A DNA stretch of 64,000 bases from Deltaproteobacteria bacterium (GCA_029552245.1 JAKPDW010000077.1:64438-128437); one strand, 5' to 3'; counted from the first letter of the stretch, positions 24,341 to 33,885 are shown. The notes: a model not told the origin generated them from the letters alone. Translations and numbers: made by a program.

Positions 24341-25351
24341 GTGTTCGGTTACGACGACATGGAACGAAAGAGCGTGTTGATCCTGCGCATCCTCAACCAG
24401 GCACAGGGTCCGCTCGGCGCACGGATCATCGCCAGGAGGCTCAAGGACTACGGCGTGAACCTCTCGGAGCGGGCCGTGCGCTACCACCTGCAGTTCATGG
24501 ACCAGCGGGAGCTGACCCGGTTCGTGGGCAGGCGCGACGGCAGGGTGATAACCGCAAGGGGCATCGAGGAGCTGCGGAACGCCCGCGTGCACGACAAGGT
24601 GGGCTACTGCATCTCGCGCATGGAGATCCTGGCCTACAAGACCACCTTCAGCGCAAGGTCGGGCAAGGGCTCGATCCCGATCAACGTGTCGTTCTTCCCC
24701 GAGGGCCAGTTCGCAAACGCGCTCAAGGCGATGCGGTCGTCCTTCGAGAAGGGCCTGTGCGTGAGCGATCTCGTGGCCACGGCGCCGGCGGGCCGCTTCC
24801 TGGGCGACATCATCGTGCCCGAGGGCAGCATCGGCTTCGCGACGGTCTGTTCCATCGTCTTCTCGGGTATGCTCCTCAAGAAGGGGATCCCCCTGGAATC
24901 CAAGTTCGGCGGCATCCTCCAGGTCAGCGAGCACAAGCCCTTGAGGTTCGTGGATCTCATCCACTACTCGGGCACCTCCCTCGACCCGTCCGAGGCGTTC
25001 ATAAGCGCCCGCATGACCGAGGTCAGGCGTGCGGTGCAACACGGCGAGGGCAAGATCCTGGCCAACTTTTCCGAGATCGCAGGGGTCTGCAAGGACGGGG
25101 TGGAGGAGGTCGTGTCCGAGCTCAGGGACGTCGGCATGAACCCGGTGATCACCATGGGCAAGACCGGGGAGCCCATATGCCAGGTACCCGTGGACGTGAA
25201 CAAGATGGGGGTGATCCTCATCGGCGGGTTGAACCCTGTCGCCGCGGCCAAGGAGGCGGGCGTGGAAGAGACCAACCTGCCCATGTCGACCCTCATGGAA
25301 TACAAGGACCTCAGGAGGTTCTCCTCGGTCTGCCGCGACTTTCTCGGCTGA
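24341..25351 (+). CDS. nrpR: NrpR-family nitrogen regulator (wHTH + NRD/DUF128 domain)
   Basis: ILRIL..PLGARIIARRL..NLSERAVRYHLQFMD wHTH, GSIPINVS, ATVCSIVFSGMLLKKGIP, LIGGLNPVAAAKE; RBS AGGAGG before GTG. Confidence 0.85.
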   Translation: MFGYDDMERKSVLILRILNQAQGPLGARIIARRLKDYGVNLSERAVRYHLQFMDQRELTRFVGRRDGRVITARGIEELRNARVHDKVGYCISRMEILAYKTTFSARSGKGSIPINVSFFPEGQFANALKAMRSSFEKGLCVSDLVATAPAGRFLGDIIVPEGSIGFATVCSIVFSGMLLKKGIPLESKFGGILQVSEHKPLRFVDLIHYSGTSLDPSEAFISARMTEVRRAVQHGEGKILANFSEIAGVCKDGVEEVVSELRDVGMNPVITMGKTGEPICQVPVDVNKMGVILIGGLNPVAAAKEAGVEETNLPMSTLMEYKDLRRFSSVCRDFLG

Positions 25352-25866: not shown

Positions 25867-28248
25867 TCACCCTAACGCTATGGCGGTCCTCGCGATGATC
25901 TCGTCCTTGACCGAGTCAGGCAGCTCGTCGAAGTATGCGCAATACCCGGCCACCCTGACCACGATCCCGGGGTACCTGCCCGGGTGCCGCCTCGCCTCGG
26001 CGAGAAGCGCCGGGTCCAAGACGTTGAGCTGCACCTCCATGCCTTTCCGGTCGAAGAACCCTTGCACGAGCGCCCCCACGATATCCACGGCCTCCCCGCG
26101 GGAGAAAGAGCCCACGTCGATGAGGAGGTTCAGGGCATACCCGTTGGGGCAGAGCGTCGCATCGATGGAAGCGACCGAGTTGAGCAGGGCGGTGGGGCCC
26201 TGCCTGTCGCACCCGTTGCAGCACCCCATGCTTGCCGCAAAGGGTCGTCCGGCCTTTCGGCCGCTCGGCAGGGCCCCGGTGCGTCTCCCGAAGGCCACGT
26301 GGGTGGTGGACGAGTAGAAGCCGGGGATGTAGGGGCCTCCCCGGGTGTTCGTGTACCCGGCGAGCGCGTCGTGGAAGGTGCGCACCACGAAACCGGCGTA
26401 TCTCTCCGGCAGGCCGTGGTCGTTGCCGAACTTCGGCGCCGACGCGAGCGCCGCCCGTACCGTCTCGTACCCCTGGAAATCGTGCAGCACGGCCTCGAGC
26501 ACCTCCTCGAGGCTGTGCGTTCTCCTGGAGAAGACAACCTCGTCGATGGCGGCGAGCGAGTCCGCGACGTCCGCGACGCCGACGCCCTGGATACCGCTCG
26601 AGTTGCGGCGGGCCCCGCCGGCGGTCACGTCCCTTCCGCTCTCGAGGCAACCCTGCACGAGCATGGAACTGAAGGGCGTGGGGTGGAAATCCCTGTTGGC
26701 CCGCTCTATCACGCGGATGTCCCGCACGAGTCTCTCCACCATGTGCTCCACCTGGGTCTTGAAGGCCCCCATGACGTCGTCCATGGACCTCAACTCCCTC
26801 ACGTGCGGTGTCCGCGCGCCCACCCTGAAGGGAGACCCGGGCCTCCTGCCGGAGTTGAGCGCAAGGAGCAGGCACATGGGCAGGTTGAACAGGGCCGCAT
26901 CGGTCGAGCAGAAGCTCCTGCCGGGCAGGGTCGGCTCCACGCAACCCACGATCGCGTAGTCCCGGGCCTCAGCCGTGGAGTAGCCGTGGGCGGTGAGAGC
27001 CTTTACGACAGCCTCGTCGCTGAACAGGCCGGGGACCGCGTTTCCCCTGCACGCCACCTCGACCGCCCGTCGGACATACGCGGGGTCCGACGACACGCTG
27101 ATGCGCGCCATGTAGTTCGGGTCGCGCAGCCTGGCGTTCTCCATGACGTCGAGGAAGATCCAGGTGAGATCGTTGACTGCGTCATTGCCCTCGGCGTCCA
27201 CCCCTCCCACGGTCGCCGCCTGGGCCACGAGGTACCCGCCGTGGTACTCGCTGATCCCGCTCGAGAGCAGGAACATGTGCTCGGTGGTCTTCGCGGAGAA
27301 GCACAGGAGCAGCTCGTAGGCCTTCTCCCTCGTCATGCGCCCCGCTTTTCTGTCGGCCTCGTAGAAGGGGTAGAGATACTGGTCTACGCGGCCCAGGCTG
27401 ACGGCCGAGTTGAGGCCCTCGAGGCATACGGCCAGGTGGGTGAGCCAGAGCGACTGGAGCGCCTCGTGGAACGTGCCGGCAGGCTTCATGGGCACCTTCG
27501 CACAGATCCTCGAGATCTCGAGCAGTTCCTCTCTTCTCGACAAGTCCCTCTCCTTGAGCGCCGCACGTCGCGCCTCTTCCGACAGCCTGGCCGAAAACGC
27601 CGCCAGGCCCTCGCACGCTATGCGGGCGGCCGCATGCAGATCTCCCCCGTCGCGGTCCAGAGACTCGAGGAACCCCTCTATGCCGAGCTTGAGCATGGCC
27701 TCGTAGCCGGGCAGAAAGTGCCCGATGCCCCCGCCCTCGTTGATGAGGTAGTACTTCGCGTCGAGCTGGTCTGCGAGATACCTGAAAAGCCTCGGGTTGT
27801 ACCAACCGAAGGCCCTCGCCACCATGTTCCTGGAAAGCCAGTACGGTATCACCTTGGCCAGGAGGCGGAACTTGTCCTTGAGGGGAACCTTGTACGGGTT
27901 GTTCCGTCTCCTGCCCATCCAGAGGATCTCGTAACACATGACCGCGCCTGCGAGCTCGGGCTGCATGATCACCGACTTCCTGTGGGAACCCACGTTGCCT
28001 ACGATGAGCTCGTCGTCGAAGATCCTGGCCGACTTGTTCTGCAGGATATGCCTGAGCGCCTTGGCCTTCCTGACGACCATGGGCTCGTTCGGGTCGTCGT
28101 GGTGTTTGAAGAAGTCCGTGACGAGCACGGCACGTTCGGTGCACAGGCGCTCACCCTGGGAGAGCAATGCCCGCCTGATCCGCTCGAACCTTTCAGGCAC
28201 CGCCTGGTTCGAGCCTCTTTCCGCGTATACGCCCCCGGTCACCTTCAC
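25867..28248 (-). CDS. Glycyl radical enzyme (PFL-like family), GRE-2, function unknown
   Basis: 793 aa; Cys-loop AIVGCVEP; glycyl motif VVRVAGYCAYF; SLGRVDQYLYPFY. Confidence 0.93.
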   Translation of the reverse strand: MKVTGGVYAERGSNQAVPERFERIRRALLSQGERLCTERAVLVTDFFKHHDDPNEPMVVRKAKALRHILQNKSARIFDDELIVGNVGSHRKSVIMQPELAGAVMCYEILWMGRRRNNPYKVPLKDKFRLLAKVIPYWLSRNMVARAFGWYNPRLFRYLADQLDAKYYLINEGGGIGHFLPGYEAMLKLGIEGFLESLDRDGGDLHAAARIACEGLAAFSARLSEEARRAALKERDLSRREELLEISRICAKVPMKPAGTFHEALQSLWLTHLAVCLEGLNSAVSLGRVDQYLYPFYEADRKAGRMTREKAYELLLCFSAKTTEHMFLLSSGISEYHGGYLVAQAATVGGVDAEGNDAVNDLTWIFLDVMENARLRDPNYMARISVSSDPAYVRRAVEVACRGNAVPGLFSDEAVVKALTAHGYSTAEARDYAIVGCVEPTLPGRSFCSTDAALFNLPMCLLLALNSGRRPGSPFRVGARTPHVRELRSMDDVMGAFKTQVEHMVERLVRDIRVIERANRDFHPTPFSSMLVQGCLESGRDVTAGGARRNSSGIQGVGVADVADSLAAIDEVVFSRRTHSLEEVLEAVLHDFQGYETVRAALASAPKFGNDHGLPERYAGFVVRTFHDALAGYTNTRGGPYIPGFYSSTTHVAFGRRTGALPSGRKAGRPFAASMGCCNGCDRQGPTALLNSVASIDATLCPNGYALNLLIDVGSFSRGEAVDIVGALVQGFFDRKGMEVQLNVLDPALLAEARRHPGRYPGIVVRVAGYCAYFDELPDSVKDEIIARTAIALG

Positions 28249-28632
28249 TTGTCACCCCCCGTTCGCGACTCCCGCACGCTGCGCCCTCCCGCGCCTCCCG
28301 GGGCCGAGGCGGCATCGTGTCGGTCAGGACAAGCCCACGAGGGTGGGCGGGAGAGAACCCTCCTCCACGTCACCGGGGCGCCCCGAGAGGAGGCGTCCTC
28401 GTCGCACGCCATGGCGAGACCCGAGAGGGCCCGTATGGGCGGCAGGGTGAAGGTCCCCCGGCCGAGAAGGTCACGGCTCGGCCCTCTCGACTCCGTCTGG
28501 TACATGAGGAACACGTCACAAGCCTCGATCGGCCACCTCTCCATCCCCACGCGTCACCTCCCTCGGAAATCCCCCGGCCGCTCGATAGCTATCCCCGCCG
28601 GTCGGCCGAGCATGCGCCCGCTGATGCACACC

Positions 28633-29481
28633 TCAGAACTCCCGTACGGGCGCCAGCACGGTGGGGGGGTAGATCTGCCCCGGCACCGGGGGCATGGAGT
28701 TGTACACCCAGTCTATGTCCACACAACCCAGCCTCACCCCCCGGAAGCGACGATACCCGCGGAACACCCCGCGCACGAGCACGCTCTCCATCTGGAGGCT
28801 GAGCCCGTACACCGCGACGTGGGCGCCGGGCTCCACGGCCTCGAGTTCGTCCTCGTACGCGTACGGCGAGAACGCGAGCCTGCCTTCATCCGGGGCCCTG
28901 CAGGCGAAAAGCGGCACGATGAGAGGATACCCATCGGGCCCCACGTACGAGAGGAAGGTGAGCGTGTCCATGCGGCCGAGCAGCGTCTTCGTCCAGGGGT
29001 TCATCGCCCTTTCCACCTGGGGCGACCTTGCCGCCCCGTACGCGAGAGAGCACGCGCACGATGCGGCCACGATCCGCCCCAGTCTCAGGCGTTCCCTTCC
29101 CCATGTCCACACGAGATCCATGGAGTGGACCGTGTGTATGCCCGTGTACGCGTTGTACCTGAACATGGGCTTGGCATTGAAAGCGGCGTAGTCCGCGCCG
29201 TGTCCCGTCTTGTGCGTCCACCTGGCCGCCCCCCTCCAGAGCGACCGGTCCATGGTCATGATGAGAAACCCGGTCTTGGGGTTCTCGAGCACGTGCTTCT
29301 TGCTCAGGCCCTCGGAGAACTGGCCCCACACCAGCACACGGGGGGTCTTTGCCATGATCGCCGTGATCAAGGTGACGTGGGGAAGGCCCTCAGGGTTCAC
29401 GGTGGCGATGAGCCCCACCTTGTTCTCGGGCTCGAACTCCTTGAGGTCCTTCTCGTCGAAGGTGGCAAGCCGCGTCTTCAT
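28633..29481 (-). CDS. Tandem pyridoxamine-5'-phosphate-oxidase-like (split-barrel) domain protein
   Basis: Two related segments GLIATVNPEGLPHV and TFLSYVGPDGYPLI; ATG 29481 overlaps the activase stop (ATGA). Confidence 0.7.
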   Translation of the reverse strand: MKTRLATFDEKDLKEFEPENKVGLIATVNPEGLPHVTLITAIMAKTPRVLVWGQFSEGLSKKHVLENPKTGFLIMTMDRSLWRGAARWTHKTGHGADYAAFNAKPMFRYNAYTGIHTVHSMDLVWTWGRERLRLGRIVAASCACSLAYGAARSPQVERAMNPWTKTLLGRMDTLTFLSYVGPDGYPLIVPLFACRAPDEGRLAFSPYAYEDELEAVEPGAHVAVYGLSLQMESVLVRGVFRGYRRFRGVRLGCVDIDWVYNSMPPVPGQIYPPTVLAPVREF

Positions 29482-30536
29482 CTTTTCCCTCCCTGTACGA
29501 CGCCGAGCGCGGCCCGGGGCCTTTCTGGCGCATCCCGCCCGGTCTCGAGCCTCAACGGGCCGCTCAGGCGGACGATCCCGGGGTCCACCCCCGAGCCCCT
29601 GGCCGCCTCCAGCATGGCATCGGCCTCGGCGCGGCCCATGAGCTCGACGCCTCCCAGGGGCCAGTCGATGCCGAGCCCCTGGTACTTGTGCAGGCACAGG
29701 TTGTTGAAGGTGCACAGATCCCACCTGCCCACCGCACCCGAGAGGTTTCGGCGGATGAACGACCCCAGCTCCGTCACGTTGTCCGTACGGGCCGTGTGGC
29801 CTGGTATGAGGGGTGTGCGCACCCACATCTTTGAAGGCCTGCCGTTCTTTCGCAGCGATGAGGCGACCCTCTGTGCGTTCTCCAGGATGAGCGAGTTCGT
29901 CACGCCGGTGAATGCCTTGTGCCTGTCCGGATCCATCTCCTTGAGGTCGAAGAGCACGATGTCCGTGAAAGGAAGGAGCCGGCTCAACACCTCCCAGGAT
30001 GCCTGCCCACAGGTATCAAGCGCCGTGTGGACGCCCTCGGCCTTGAGTTTTGCGAGCAAGGCAAGGGCGAACTCGGGCTGCAGGGTGGGCTCGCCGCCCG
30101 AGAGCGTAACCCCGCCCGAAGACCGCTCGAAGTATACCCTGTCCTTGAGGACCTCGTTCACGAGGTCGTCGAGCCTGTACCTCACGCCGTAGGCCTCGAG
30201 TGCGGTCGACGGGCATGCCTCGGTACAGGCCAGGCACCCGGTGCACCTGTCCCTGTCGATGACCATGCCGCCTGCCGACGGTGAGAGGGCGTGAGACCTG
30301 CACGTCCTGACGCACTCCAGGCACCCGATGCACCTCGAGGCCACCCAGTGCACCTGCACCTTGCTCGAGATGCTTTCCGGGTTGTGGCACCACCTGCAGG
30401 CGAGCGGGCACCCCTTGAAGAAGACCGTGCTCCTGATTCCCGGGCCGTCCTCGGTCGACATGCGCTGTATGCGCAGGATCAGGCCCTGCGTGGAGTTCCC
30501 CGCCGCAGACGTGCCTGTTGTCGTGACGTTTCTCAT
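29478..30536 (-). CDS. Glycyl-radical enzyme activating protein (radical SAM, ferredoxin insert)
   Basis: DGPGIRSTVFFKGCPLACRWCHNPES; CIGCLECVRTC and CTGCLACTEAC; GVTLSGGEP, HTALDTCG. Confidence 0.96.
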   Translation of the reverse strand: MRNVTTTGTSAAGNSTQGLILRIQRMSTEDGPGIRSTVFFKGCPLACRWCHNPESISSKVQVHWVASRCIGCLECVRTCRSHALSPSAGGMVIDRDRCTGCLACTEACPSTALEAYGVRYRLDDLVNEVLKDRVYFERSSGGVTLSGGEPTLQPEFALALLAKLKAEGVHTALDTCGQASWEVLSRLLPFTDIVLFDLKEMDPDRHKAFTGVTNSLILENAQRVASSLRKNGRPSKMWVRTPLIPGHTARTDNVTELGSFIRRNLSGAVGRWDLCTFNNLCLHKYQGLGIDWPLGGVELMGRAEADAMLEAARGSGVDPGIVRLSGPLRLETGRDAPERPRAALGVVQGGKR

Positions 30537-30565
30537 GGGCATCGTCGGTACCCTTGCCGCCCCCC

Positions 30566-33082
30566 TCACAACGCCTCGTGGCTCAACCTCGCGATGAGCT
30601 CGTCCTGGAGCTCCCGGCCGACGCTCGTGAAGTACGCGTTGTACCCCGTTATCCTCACGAGGAGGGAACGGTAGTCCTCCGGGTGTTCCTGCGCGTCTCT
30701 CAGGGTGTCTGCGTCTATCATGTTGACCTGGAGGCAGGTCCCGCCGTTGTGCGCATACCCGCGCAAGAACGCCTTGAACTTCTCCTTGTGCTCGGGGTCT
30801 TTGAGGATCGATGGGTTGAAGGAGATGGTATGGCTCGCGCCGTTCGGAAGCCTGTTGTAGTAACCCAGGTAGTCGCCGGACCCGTCCGGGCAGAGGCCGC
30901 CGAGGGCCTTTCCCACCGAGTTCGCGTTCGCCGTCGGCCCGTTGATGTCCGCGCCGTTCGATGGGCAGATGGCGTTCGACAGGAAGGTGCCCTTGGCCCT
31001 GCCGTCAGGGCTCGCGGGCAGGATGAAGCCGTCGGAGACCCAGTAGTTCCAGCTCAGCATGCCGGGCCTGAAGCGCCTTTTGGTGGAGACGGTGCCGTGC
31101 TTCCAGGTCTCCTCGCACCACAGCTCCATGACGCGATCCGCCATGGCGTCCGCCTCGTCGTCGTCTCGGCCGTACTTGGGCGCCTTGTAGCGGGCCTTGG
31201 GCCTGAGGGCCTCGTAGCCCTCCCAGTTGGACTTGAGCGCCTGTATGAGGTCGTCCATGGTGCACTCTTTCCGGTCGTAGACGAGGTATTTGACGGCCAG
31301 CAGGCTGTCCACGGTGGTGGCGAACGTCACGGCCTCGAGCGTCGTGAAGTTCAGTTCAGCACCGCCCCTGGTGATGTCGAGCGCCTTCTCCGCGCACCCC
31401 TTGACCAGGCAGGACACGTACGGCGTGGGGCAGAACTCGGCGCGCACCGCTTCCGAGCGCTCGTAGAGATCCACGCAACGCCTGATGATGTACCGCGTCT
31501 GCTCTGCGTAGGCGTCCCAGAACTGCTCCCACGTCCTGAAGGTCCTCGGGTCTCCTGTCCTTGGGCCGTCCTGTCGTGCCTTCTCCTTCTCGAGGGTTAT
31601 GGGGTCGACGAAGTCGAAGAAGTCCCTGCCGTCGTTGAGCGCGAGCTCGACGGCCTTGAGGAGGTTGAGGTTGTTGTCCACCGTTCCCGAGCGGTCGTTG
31701 CCCACCATGGTGTTCTCGAGGCATCCCACCGGCGCGTACTCGTGGACGTTCCCCTCGTGTATGAGGTGCGTCACGCCGGCCTTCCTCGCCTCCACCATCA
31801 TCCCCGCCATGGACCGCTCGTCGAAGTTGAGAAGGAACGGGGAACCCTGGCTCGAGGCGATCATCTCCACGACCTTGTCCAGCAGTTCGTCAGGGCTGTT
31901 CCTGTGCAGCCTCACGTTCGGCTTGGGCTCGAGGATGGGGCTCATCTCGTCGATGACCTCGAGGATCGCGAAGGTGAGCTCGTTCGTCATGTCGCGCCCG
32001 CCCTGGCCCATGCCGGAGAGGGTTATGAGCTGGCCGTAGCCCGCGGTGATGCCGTTGTTGCCGATTCGGACCATGGCGTCGTACGCCGTGTTCGCATGCA
32101 CCCAGAAACACTTGAGGATCTCCTTGCCGAACTCGCGGTCCATCCCCTGCTCGATGGAGGCCCTCCAGTAGGGGAGGAGGTACTGGTCTATGCGCCCGAA
32201 GGAAACGCCGGGGCCGGGGTAGTTCTCATCGCTCATGACGAGCATGTGCGTGAGCCACAGGGCCTGGACCGCCTCCCAGAAGGTCCCGGCCGGTTCCCAG
32301 GGGACGCGCCTCAGGTTCCTCCCCATCTGCTCGAGCTCCGCCTTGCGCACGGGGTCGGGCTCCCCGGCGGCGGTCCGCTCGCAGAGTTCGGCGTAGCGGG
32401 ATGCAAGCTCCCTGGGCATGGTCGATGCAATCTTCATGGCCCTCAGCTGTGCGCCTTTCTCTCCGTTGTGCTCACGCGGGTCCAGGGCCTGCAAGCGGGC
32501 CTCGAGATCGTCGTGGACGGCCTTGAACCCCTCCTTCAGGATGCGCTCATACCCGGGTATGAGGTGGCCGCTCGTTGCCCCCGAGTTCCCGTAGCCGTGA
32601 TCGTGGAACCACTTCACAGCCCTCCTTACGCCGCTTTTCCCGAACATGAGCCTGTTCCTCCGCTTCGTCTCCCTTTCATCGAGGCAGAGCGAGGTCTGGA
32701 TGTTGAACCTCGCCCCGCAGAGAAGGTCACCGGGGAGGATCTCCTGGGGGAGCCGGTTCACCATGACCTCCTTGACGAACCAGGCCCTCCTCTCGGCTAT
32801 GCTCCAGGTCCAGAAGTCGGGATGGAGGTCCACCTTGCGGGCCGCCTGCCTGAACGACGACCTGAAGGTCTGGAAGAAGGGGTAGGTCTCGGGGACGATG
32901 TAGAAGGTCGTCTCGTCGAAGACCTCGTCCCAAGGCGTGCCGGTGGTCCACGCCGTGAACTCGTTGTTCCACCTCCTTGCCGCACCCTCGAGATAATACC
33001 GCCTCAGCCACTCGATGCGGGGCGAGAGGTTCTTGGGTTGTTTCAGCCTCTTCTGAGCCACGCAAGCCTGTGCCGTGCTCAT
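30566..33082 (-). CDS. Glycyl radical enzyme, GRE-1, function unknown
   Basis: 838 aa; Cys-loop APVGCLEN; glycyl motif LVRITGYNAYF; SFGRIDQYL; atypical N-terminus. Confidence 0.92.
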   Translation of the reverse strand: MSTAQACVAQKRLKQPKNLSPRIEWLRRYYLEGAARRWNNEFTAWTTGTPWDEVFDETTFYIVPETYPFFQTFRSSFRQAARKVDLHPDFWTWSIAERRAWFVKEVMVNRLPQEILPGDLLCGARFNIQTSLCLDERETKRRNRLMFGKSGVRRAVKWFHDHGYGNSGATSGHLIPGYERILKEGFKAVHDDLEARLQALDPREHNGEKGAQLRAMKIASTMPRELASRYAELCERTAAGEPDPVRKAELEQMGRNLRRVPWEPAGTFWEAVQALWLTHMLVMSDENYPGPGVSFGRIDQYLLPYWRASIEQGMDREFGKEILKCFWVHANTAYDAMVRIGNNGITAGYGQLITLSGMGQGGRDMTNELTFAILEVIDEMSPILEPKPNVRLHRNSPDELLDKVVEMIASSQGSPFLLNFDERSMAGMMVEARKAGVTHLIHEGNVHEYAPVGCLENTMVGNDRSGTVDNNLNLLKAVELALNDGRDFFDFVDPITLEKEKARQDGPRTGDPRTFRTWEQFWDAYAEQTRYIIRRCVDLYERSEAVRAEFCPTPYVSCLVKGCAEKALDITRGGAELNFTTLEAVTFATTVDSLLAVKYLVYDRKECTMDDLIQALKSNWEGYEALRPKARYKAPKYGRDDDEADAMADRVMELWCEETWKHGTVSTKRRFRPGMLSWNYWVSDGFILPASPDGRAKGTFLSNAICPSNGADINGPTANANSVGKALGGLCPDGSGDYLGYYNRLPNGASHTISFNPSILKDPEHKEKFKAFLRGYAHNGGTCLQVNMIDADTLRDAQEHPEDYRSLLVRITGYNAYFTSVGRELQDELIARLSHEAL

Positions 33083-33816
33083 GGGCGCCTCCCTTCCCCC
33101 TGTTTCAGCATCCTGCGCAGGTTCAGCTCGCCGTGGGCGAGCATGTCACGCATGATGGAAGCGGCCCTTTCCGGGTCTTTCGCCGCCACCGCATCCACGA
33201 TCAGCTCGTGGAACCCGACGATAGCGGGCTTCATCGACTCGTCCGAGAAGAACATGCCCGTGAAGTTCATGTAGACCGTCTTGAAAGAGTTGATGAGCAG
33301 CGGGTAGATGATGTTTCCCGAGCACATGGCGATGGTGTGGTGGAAGGCGAAGTCCAGCCTGGTCACGCTCTCCACGTCTTTCGGGTCCGCGGCCCTCTCC
33401 TTCTGCACGATCTCCTCGAGCTCTTCGAGCTGGGCCTGGGTCCGGTGGACGGCGGCAAGCCGCGCCGTCTCAGACTCCACCAGCTCCCTGACGGCGAGAA
33501 GCCCCGACAGCACGGACTCGTCAAGTGCGCCCTTGTGGAAGTTGATGATGGAGTTCAGGATGGCAAGAGACCCCTCCTTGCGGTAATCGTTCACGACCGT
33601 GCCCACCCGGGGCCTCATCGTCACGAGTCCCTTTGCCTCGAGGTCGACAAGCCCCTCGTGCACCACCGGCCTGCTCACTCCGAGCATGAGCGCGAGCTCG
33701 CGCTCGGAAGGCAGCCTTTGGCCGATGGCCAGCTTTCCCGTGAGGATGAGTTCCTCGAACCTGCTCACGAAGACCTCGACCAGGCTCTCCGCTTTCAGTG
33801 GCTTGAGGATGTCCAA
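33079..33816 (-). CDS. GntR/FadR-family transcriptional regulator
   Basis: GQRLPSERELALMLGVSRPVVHEGL HTH; FCD domain DFAFHHTIA..SGN; TTG start after AAAGGA; stop overlaps GRE-1 ATG. Confidence 0.93.
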   Translation of the reverse strand: MDILKPLKAESLVEVFVSRFEELILTGKLAIGQRLPSERELALMLGVSRPVVHEGLVDLEAKGLVTMRPRVGTVVNDYRKEGSLAILNSIINFHKGALDESVLSGLLAVRELVESETARLAAVHRTQAQLEELEEIVQKERAADPKDVESVTRLDFAFHHTIAMCSGNIIYPLLINSFKTVYMNFTGMFFSDESMKPAIVGFHELIVDAVAAKDPERAASIMRDMLAHGELNLRRMLKQGEGRRP

Positions 33817-33839
33817 TATGTCGCGTCCTTTCCGGCTGG

Positions 33840-33885
33840 TGGTATGTCCAGCTGACAATATACCCCGGATCCACCCCCTGCGCAA
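33840..33885 (-). promoter_or_regulatory. Sigma-70-type promoter and FadR-subfamily operator of the GRE operon
   Basis: Minus strand TTGCGC (33885-33880)-N17-TATATT (33862-33857), then TGGACATACCA (33850-33840), one mismatch from TGGT-N3-ACCA. Confidence 0.55.

Follow-up and report, generated by a model that had tools for sequence, protein, structure and literature searches.

Gene organization of the locus

We analysed a stretch of 64,000 nucleotides from a Deltaproteobacteria bacterium (GCA_029552245.1, JAKPDW010000077.1:64438-128437), hereafter the window. Between positions 25,867 and 33,885 its minus strand carries five intact genes, encoding a FadR-type GntR regulator, a glycyl radical enzyme (GRE1), an activating enzyme or activase (AE), a tandem split-barrel (PNPOx-like) protein and, behind a 384-bp spacer, a second glycyl radical enzyme (GRE2). 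We interpret the locus as a composite of two modules, a self-regulated GRE1 cassette and an appended GRE2 that shares the activase of the cassette, and give this interpretation a probability of roughly 60%. Open reading frames (ORFs) were called with guidance from the G+C content at third codon positions in a window of ~64% G+C, and all five gene assignments were backed by Pfam and NCBIfam. The features, from upstream to downstream, are as follows.

33857..33885, minus strand: predicted sigma-70-like promoter read from the sequence, with -35 box TTGCGC (33880-33885), 17-nt spacer and -10 box TATATT (33857-33862)
33834..33852, minus strand: operator-like palindrome GCTGGACATACCACCAGCC directly after the -10 box, conserved in relatives
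33079..33816 (open ORF to 33936), minus strand: GntR/FCD regulator of the FadR subfamily, winged helix-turn-helix plus FCD domain (Pfam)
30566..33082, minus strand: GRE1, glycyl radical enzyme of 838 aa, core enzyme of the cassette (Pfam PFL-like and Gly_radical)
29478..30569 (probable start ATG 30542), minus strand: activase, radical SAM enzyme with two-ferredoxin insert (TIGR02494, Radical_SAM, Fer4)
28633..29481, minus strand: tandem split-barrel (PNPOx-like) partner, 282 aa (PF01243, AlphaFold2 model)
28249..28632, minus strand: non-conserved 384-bp spacer between cassette and GRE2, no feature detected
25867..28248, minus strand: GRE2, glycyl radical enzyme of 793 aa (Pfam)

Gene order, strand and couplings agree with a first-pass annotation that was made from the sequence alone. 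ATGA overlaps were read at 33079-33082 and 29478-29481, each with GGGAGG ahead of it, and a GTGA overlap joins the GRE1 and AE ORFs. The activase scored 304.9 bits for TIGR02494 (cut-off 174.35) and has CPLACRWC and two Fer4 motifs, which places it in the GRE-activating family. The first-pass annotation had treated the five genes as one transcription unit. They do stand in the order it gave, but the inclusion of GRE2 in a single unit is plausible rather than proven, because the 384-bp spacer precedes this gene. The spacer (28249-28632) gave no prediction of a terminator, promoter, operator or repeat and no match to an Rfam family, and its sequence is not conserved; its length in relatives ranges from ~30 to 330 bp.

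The regulator scored 59.7 bits for GntR (PF00392) and 83.6 bits for FCD (PF07729), the domain pair of the FadR subfamily, and reached no NCBIfam equivalog cut-off. Its homologues are 244-245 aa long with the N-terminus MKDILKPLK. Starting at TTG 33816 would give 245 aa, and this is the probable true start; the conserved operator directly after the -10 box points to this codon as well. The promoter itself is a prediction that a consensus scan did not pick out, and the closest relatives show its arrangement CCCCTTGCC...TATATT ahead of gntR as well. The palindrome has the family consensus GCTGGTAATACCACCAGCC, with a TGGT-N3-ACCA core that we take to be the operator consensus of FadR-type GntR regulators. 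It is present as a single copy per locus, upstream of gntR, at ~45 loci in several phyla, and GCTGGACATACCACCAGCC is the sole good operator match in the 3.27-Mb genome of the window. The first-pass annotation had the GntR protein sense a substrate on which both GREs act. The operator was found only upstream of gntR, with no match in the spacer before GRE2, and does not support this reading.

Conservation of the GRE1 cassette

With one genome scanned per species, relatives of GRE1 were found at 492 places. The best 80 of these 492 loci were analysed; their GRE1 proteins are 69-79% identical and occur in Thermodesulfobacteriota, Spirochaetota, Chloroflexota, Myxococcota, Binatia and others. We compared the five window proteins with the 80 loci by tblastn. 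Of the 68 loci with enough flanking sequence, 67 had the split-barrel gene downstream of GRE1, and in most loci the AE sat between the two. GntR was found upstream of GRE1 in about half of the loci. In contrast, a GRE2 ortholog adjoined only 8 of 67 cassette loci. Hence, GntR-GRE1-AE-split-barrel is an autonomous cassette, and GRE2 is not part of the conserved unit.

The AE was absent between GRE1 and the split-barrel gene in several loci (L028, L031, L036, L037, L079, L105, L106 and L112). Because the partner still follows GRE1 in these AE-less loci, it goes with GRE1 and not with the AE. A role of the partner as mere reductant of the AE was considered and rejected as the leading reading, as the partner adjoins GRE1 where the AE is encoded elsewhere. 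The sole amply flanked GRE1 ortholog without a nearby AE and split-barrel gene is in a Candidatus Binatia metagenome-assembled genome (MAG; L048, 8001-10472), and this genome holds a GRE2-like gene of 45% identity.

A Syntrophaceae-like subclade (L035, L038, L041, L042 and L046) lacks GntR and has the order glpK-GRE1-AE-partner-MFS. The glycerol kinase upstream scored 685 for TIGR01311 (cut-off 590; e.g. L038:6480-7958), and the transporter downstream, of the major facilitator superfamily (MFS), scored 449 as an SfMCT-type L-lactate (monocarboxylate) transporter (cut-off 320; e.g. L035:5159-6382). This arrangement was the one pointer to a substrate among the neighbouring genes; it probably goes back to a single evolutionary event, and is too weak for a substrate assignment.

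The split-barrel partner

The N-terminal half of the partner scored 33.5 bits for PF01243 (cut-off 28.1). An AlphaFold2 model, built from an alignment of 47 orthologues, showed two split barrels with a pLDDT of 87.7 and a pTM of 0.86. In Foldseek searches each half resembled dimeric FMN/F420/heme split-barrel proteins of ~120 aa at 12-16% identity, with a probability of 1.0 to Ldb0262, HupZ, MSMEG_3380, the prFMN maturase PhdC and the FMN-binding protein of D. vulgaris. We therefore assign the partner, on its predicted structure, to the PNPOx-like split-barrel fold. The loop PMFRYNAY (residues 105-112) is invariant and is kept in a sister protein of 26% identity; model confidence is low in this loop. 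Among 1.84 billion representatives, the family was small, comprising 445 clusters at 50% identity, all of 260-300 aa and typically ~280 aa.

No Rosetta-stone fusions of the family were found among the 445 clusters, and the partner sequence gave no significant match to the PDB. A full-text literature search found no paper that combined 'glycyl radical' with 'split barrel'. The accessory subunits covered in the sections consulted of a GRE review of June 2026 are those of HPAD, BSS and MASS, and a split-barrel or flavin partner is not mentioned in these sections (PMC13450708).

The GRE2 clade

A search with the single GRE2 sequence yielded one locus, and GRE2 loci were therefore gathered by profile. 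The family consists of more than 120 clusters at least 60% identical (range 60-75%), with at least 574 loci in species genomes of Thermodesulfobacteriota, Dehalococcoidia and other Chloroflexota, Actinomycetota and Spirochaetota. GRE2 is nearly always encoded alone: 70 of the 80 best loci had no AE within 6 kb, as did 12 of 18 contexts in a smaller set. In the remaining 10 of the 80 loci, GRE2 lay directly behind the cassette nine times and had an unrelated GRE plus AE nearby once. In the phylogenetic tree, the GRE2 of the window and eight attached GRE2s were monophyletic (support 0.978), while the ninth attached GRE2 (L121) was basal to a neighbouring solo clade. Attachment of GRE2 to the cassette is confined to one small lineage.

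GRE2 also stands next to a sister of the cassette in an unrelated family. Genome G051 has the order TetR-GRE2-GRE1B-AE-split-barrel paralogue, and its GRE1B is 46-48% identical to GRE1 with the whole GRE1 pocket signature kept. From these sequences G051 represents an independent second attachment, such that GRE2 would have joined the cassette or its sister at least twice.

The first-pass annotation had staked a single five-gene radical pathway on the two GREs being conserved together. With GRE2 adjoining 8 of 67 cassette loci and the cassette adjoining 9 of 80 GRE2 loci, this proposal gives way to an autonomous cassette with GRE2 appended in one lineage. A rival reading is a sequential pathway, in which one family of substrates undergoes radical eliminations, consecutive or branching, by GRE1 with its partner and by GRE2; GRE2 would use the product of GRE1 or supply its substrate, and activase sharing would be incidental. 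The two independent attachments, to the cassette and to the sister cassette, speak for such a pathway. The scatter of GRE2 over unrelated contexts in 70 of 80 loci speaks against it, as does the lack of a regulator site before GRE2 in common with gntR. Furthermore, clustering of the neighbourhoods of 80 GRE1 loci and of 18 plus 80 GRE2 loci gave no further conserved pathway genes around either enzyme, the Syntrophaceae-like subclade excepted; the other clusters were mostly shadow ORFs or lineage synteny (NrpR, GDH, YggS). We regard the sequential pathway as unlikely, and as the main rival to activase sharing.

The genes flanking the window locus are unrelated to it and encode NrpR, YggS-like, SAM hydroxide adenosyltransferase, ClpB, HD-domain, HEAT and GGDEF proteins. 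Bacterial microcompartment (BMC) shell, aldolase, CoA-transferase and small GRE subunit genes were not among them, in agreement with the first-pass annotation. The NrpR-type regulator (HTH_12 and NRD1_2; window positions 24341-25351, plus strand) is convergent and lies just downstream of GRE2. It was rejected as a member of the locus, since it is syntenic in relatives with or without GRE2.

Two other GRE2 contexts were observed. In family f12, GRE2 orthologs adjoin TetR-family regulators with BetI-type or YsiA-like C-terminal domains (L092, 11205-12011; L088, 10475-11119), in contrast with the GntR control of the cassette. In a Dehalococcoidales MAG (L126, 9829-13072), a GRE of 31% identity with its own AE lies 1.5 kb downstream of a GRE2 ortholog, which makes a different arrangement of two GREs and one AE.

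Motifs and active-site pockets of the two GREs

In translation, GRE1 has the thiyl loop VGCLEN and the glycyl loop VRITGYNAYF, and GRE2 has VGCVEP and VRVAGYCAYF. The PFL-type CC pair is absent from both, and these motif readings confirm those of the first-pass annotation (GCLE/RITGY versus GCVE/RVAGY). Both proteins scored well over the cut-offs of PF02901 and PF01228 and belong to the PFL-like superfamily; their mutual identity is 28-31%.

The NCBIfam scores were far under all equivalog cut-offs. For the TIGR01774 subfamily (cut-off 678), GRE1 scored 422 and GRE2 608. The equivalog scores of GRE2 and GRE1 were 459 and 369 for HypD (cut-off 1100) and 450 and 319 for CutC (cut-off 1050). At a cut-off of 1000, GRE2 scored 433 for HpfG, and GRE1 scored 375 and 360 for HpsG and HpfG. 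These equivalog scores amount to 30-45% of the cut-offs. The best scores for IAD, HPAD and PFL were 311 (cut-off 1100), 228 (1150) and 135 (994), with GRE1 below GRE2 throughout.

Pockets were mapped onto family alignments of 77 GRE1 relatives and 119 GRE2 relatives. Glycerol dehydratase (GD) numbering served as reference; the GD sequence was taken from the HMMER alignment and its numbering was checked. The Glu of the CxE motif and the beta1 His (GD H164) are kept in both families. We take the diol-binding residues of GD to be H281, S282, Y339, D447 and Y640. GRE1 keeps none of these five and GRE2 keeps D447 and Y640, so that neither fits a glycerol or propanediol dehydratase. GRE2 retains equivalents of GD H164, E435, D447 and Y640, with the pocket changes H281S, S282A and Y339A. 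GRE1 carries two inserted residues at H281/S282 (ENYPGPG), has Y339 deleted, and shows V in place of D447 and L in place of Y640. The conserved pocket signature of the GRE1 family comprises SGH, MSDENYPGPG, GITAGYGQL and FRPGMLSWNYW. The last strand is strictly conserved, and its Arg aligns with the pocket residue V680 of IslA. The CxE motif is described as the hallmark of GRE 1,2-eliminases and isomerases in the review (PMC13450708).

By profile scores, both GREs are placed outside all characterised clades, as the first-pass annotation had held. They are nevertheless assigned by CxE and beta1 His to the known 1,2-eliminase/isomerase type, at variance with its statement that the enzymes match no class that could be named. 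Because their pockets differ, GRE1 and GRE2 almost certainly act on different substrates. That both enzymes are of eliminase type with different pockets also speaks for a sequential pathway. The pocket Arg of GRE1, its FadR-type (carboxylate-sensing) regulator and the lactate-type MFS transporter of one subclade hint at an anionic, hydroxylated substrate. In the GRE2 family H177, C436, E438, D450, Y645 and G768 are invariant. We considered GRE2 as a decayed or spare copy, and rejected this in view of the catalytic residues being invariant across the family.

Co-occurrence of GRE2 with the cassette and its activase

In an even phylum sample of 401 genomes, a GRE2 ortholog was found in 15 genomes, an orthologous partner in 26 and both in 8 (Fisher p=5e-7; p=0.01 and odds ratio 4.5 when conditioned on GRE-positive genomes). 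On inspection, 13 of the 15 GRE2 genomes had the cassette or the sister cassette. With the split-barrel gene as marker, 43 of 50 genomes reached via GRE2 loci, from four phyla, were positive. Of these, 35 reached ortholog level (E<=1e-60), seven matched as sisters (1e-22 to 1e-37), and one gave a marginal match of half length at 1e-9. The background of the marker, ~10% of the 401 phylum genomes and 20-34% of GRE-positive genomes without GRE2, comes from sampling frames that differ from that of the 50. Conversely, a detached GRE2 ortholog was present in only 3 of 50 genomes reached via cassette loci. These counts strongly suggest that GRE2 depends on the cassette one-sidedly at genome level.

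The genome of the window (99% complete, 3.27 Mb) encodes five GREs and four GRE-AEs, and GRE2 alone has no adjacent AE. Genome G111, of the same genus (the record of L002; 98% complete), encodes exactly GRE1, GRE2 and one GRE-AE, its next TIGR02494 match having E=1e-8. G305 has three GREs, of which GRE2 is on a separate contig, and the cassette AE only. G233 lacks GRE1 and the partner; it has GRE2 together with an orphan AE that shares 54% identity with the AE of the cassette. Elimination leaves the cassette-type AE as the best candidate for activating GRE2. As GRE2 alone lacks an AE of its own in the window genome and G111 has a single GRE-AE, one AE probably serves both GREs. The sharing of one activase suggested in the first-pass annotation is therefore upheld by elimination in the window genome and G111, at the strength of a probable link.

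Two side observations concern these genomes. The three further GREs of the window genome lie, each with an activase, at uncharacterised loci on contigs C58, C95 and C2 (L099, L100 and L101). One is an enzyme of 850 aa with the Cys loop QACMSP, presumably X-succinate-synthase-like; one has 797 aa and NNCMQP; and one is a GCVEP enzyme of 1027 aa, extended by 230 aa at its N-terminus, with its AE and a short-chain dehydrogenase/reductase encoded behind it. The orphan AE of G233 (L104, G233:C168, 2277-3386) has no GRE within several kb; the GRE2 ortholog in this genome is likewise unlinked, as are two further GREs.

Several points weigh against activase sharing. The marker is missing from 7 of the 50 GRE2 genomes, which have only generic AEs of 39-44% identity; these seven are MAGs of 1.4-3.2 Mb with unstated completeness, and the absence may or may not be due to incompleteness. 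The co-occurrence counts ignore phylogeny, and the 50 genomes are those of the top-scoring loci. Co-occurrence could mirror a metabolic link or a shared niche instead. The glycyl loops differ, RITGYNA in GRE1 versus RVAGYCA in GRE2, and that of GRE2 resembles the loops of the C58 and C95 GREs of the window genome, which own activases. According to the review, AE specificity is presumed to depend in part on the sequence of the Gly loop (PMC13450708).

The loop resemblance, the seven marker-less genomes and the modest association among GRE-positive genomes are also what one would expect if the two GREs were coincidental neighbours, with GRE2 independent and served by another or a promiscuous activase, and co-occurrence reflecting lineage and the habitat of GRE-rich sediment and digester anaerobes. 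We consider this quite improbable given a co-occurrence of 86% across four phyla versus 6% in reverse, the lack of any other GRE activase in G111 and G305, and attachment at least twice. The asymmetric co-occurrence also fits a sequential pathway; G233, with GRE2 and the 54%-identical orphan AE but neither GRE1 nor partner, counts against such a pathway. Activase sharing remains the best-supported link between GRE1 and GRE2.

The first-pass annotation had also raised a GRE1:GRE2 heteromer, for which adjacency, in the window lineage only, is the argument. Its probability is very small. The two proteins are just 28-31% identical and have different pockets, GRE2 is absent from 18 of 26 cassette genomes in the phylum sample and from 47 of the 50 cassette genomes, and it is mostly encoded far from GRE1. 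Furthermore, characterised PFL-like GREs are described as having a conserved homodimer interface (PMC13450708).

Proposed mechanism and significance

In the two-module interpretation, the FadR-type GntR repressor would bind one palindromic operator overlapping its own promoter and so control GRE1, its cognate radical-SAM activase and the split-barrel protein. GRE1 would be a 1,2-eliminase-type enzyme with the CxE motif and His, and a pocket unlike that of characterised members. The split-barrel protein would serve GRE1 specifically, as an accessory or redox subunit bound to it or as the enzyme of the following pathway step. The second module would consist of GRE2, an intact eliminase-type enzyme of another clade that was placed behind the cassette in the window lineage. 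Most likely, the cassette activase installs the glycyl radical on GRE2, which would act as a separate homodimer on a different, possibly related substrate.

The locus links two large unstudied GRE clades, with roughly 500-600 occurrences apiece in species-representative genomes. The GRE1 clade is accompanied by a partner that is not an activase and whose fold had not been linked to GREs before, and the GRE2 clade is normally activase-less. According to the review, whole GRE clades are still without function, and the understanding of activase specificity and of accessory subunits is poor (PMC13450708). Should the orphan clade depend on the cassette, co-expression with the cassette AE, with or without the partner, would offer a route to activating and assaying GRE2 enzymes, and the locus would be a natural example of one activase for dissimilar GREs. 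The conserved operator and its GntR protein offer a way to identify the inducer and, through it, the substrate. A bolder and rather doubtful extension is that the split-barrel protein and the cassette-type activase form a new multi-component GRE system that also serves the activase-less clade in trans. If so, ~600 species with orphan GRE2-type genes would rely on the cassette for radical installation or a flavin-linked step, and the cassette would be one activation and redox hub for two different radical chemistries.

Comparison with known systems

GD (C. butyricum DhaB1, 1r8w/1r9d) and 1,2-propanediol dehydratase (5i2a/5i2g) have in common with the locus the PFL2-type fold, the CxE loop, the beta1 His and an AE with ferredoxin insert. 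GRE2 is 33% identical to GD and, like GD, has the D447 and Y640 equivalents. GRE1 is 28% identical and differs by its aromatic SWNYW stretch and conserved Arg. Unlike these dehydratase systems, the locus has no BMC and no 1,3-propanediol dehydrogenase, and has the split-barrel partner instead.

The best solved structure for both enzymes is the PFL2 of A. fulgidus (2f3o; 488 bits for GRE2 and 309 bits for GRE1). GRE2 and 2f3o share the segment SF.S(S/T)DAAL.N after the Cys loop, and are remote from each other at an identity of roughly 40%, as estimated by eye from the alignment. A function of 2f3o as GD or alkylsuccinate synthase has been proposed, according to the review (PMC13450708). As this function is debated, we made no functional transfer from 2f3o.

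HPAD gamma, BSS beta/gamma and the rubredoxin-like MASS delta are small non-catalytic proteins encoded next to a GRE, a position that the split-barrel partner shares. The association of the partner with GRE1 is tighter than that of the activase. The predicted fold of the partner, two PNPOx-like split barrels without Fe-S Cys motifs, is unrelated to these subunits.

The C-S lyases IslA/IseG and HpsG share the CxE eliminase architecture with GRE1 and are among its top PDB matches (289-291 bits). GRE1 does not have the residues of an isethionate or 2,3-dihydroxypropane-1-sulfonate (DHPS) sulfite-lyase (IslA R189, Q193 and R678): R189 is replaced by A and Q193 by H, and the position of R678 is R670 in the window GRE1 but R or Q, and not conserved, in the family. 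Instead of this sulfonate triad, GRE1 has the conserved Arg at the position of IslA V680, and an anion-binding pocket in GRE1 is plausible.

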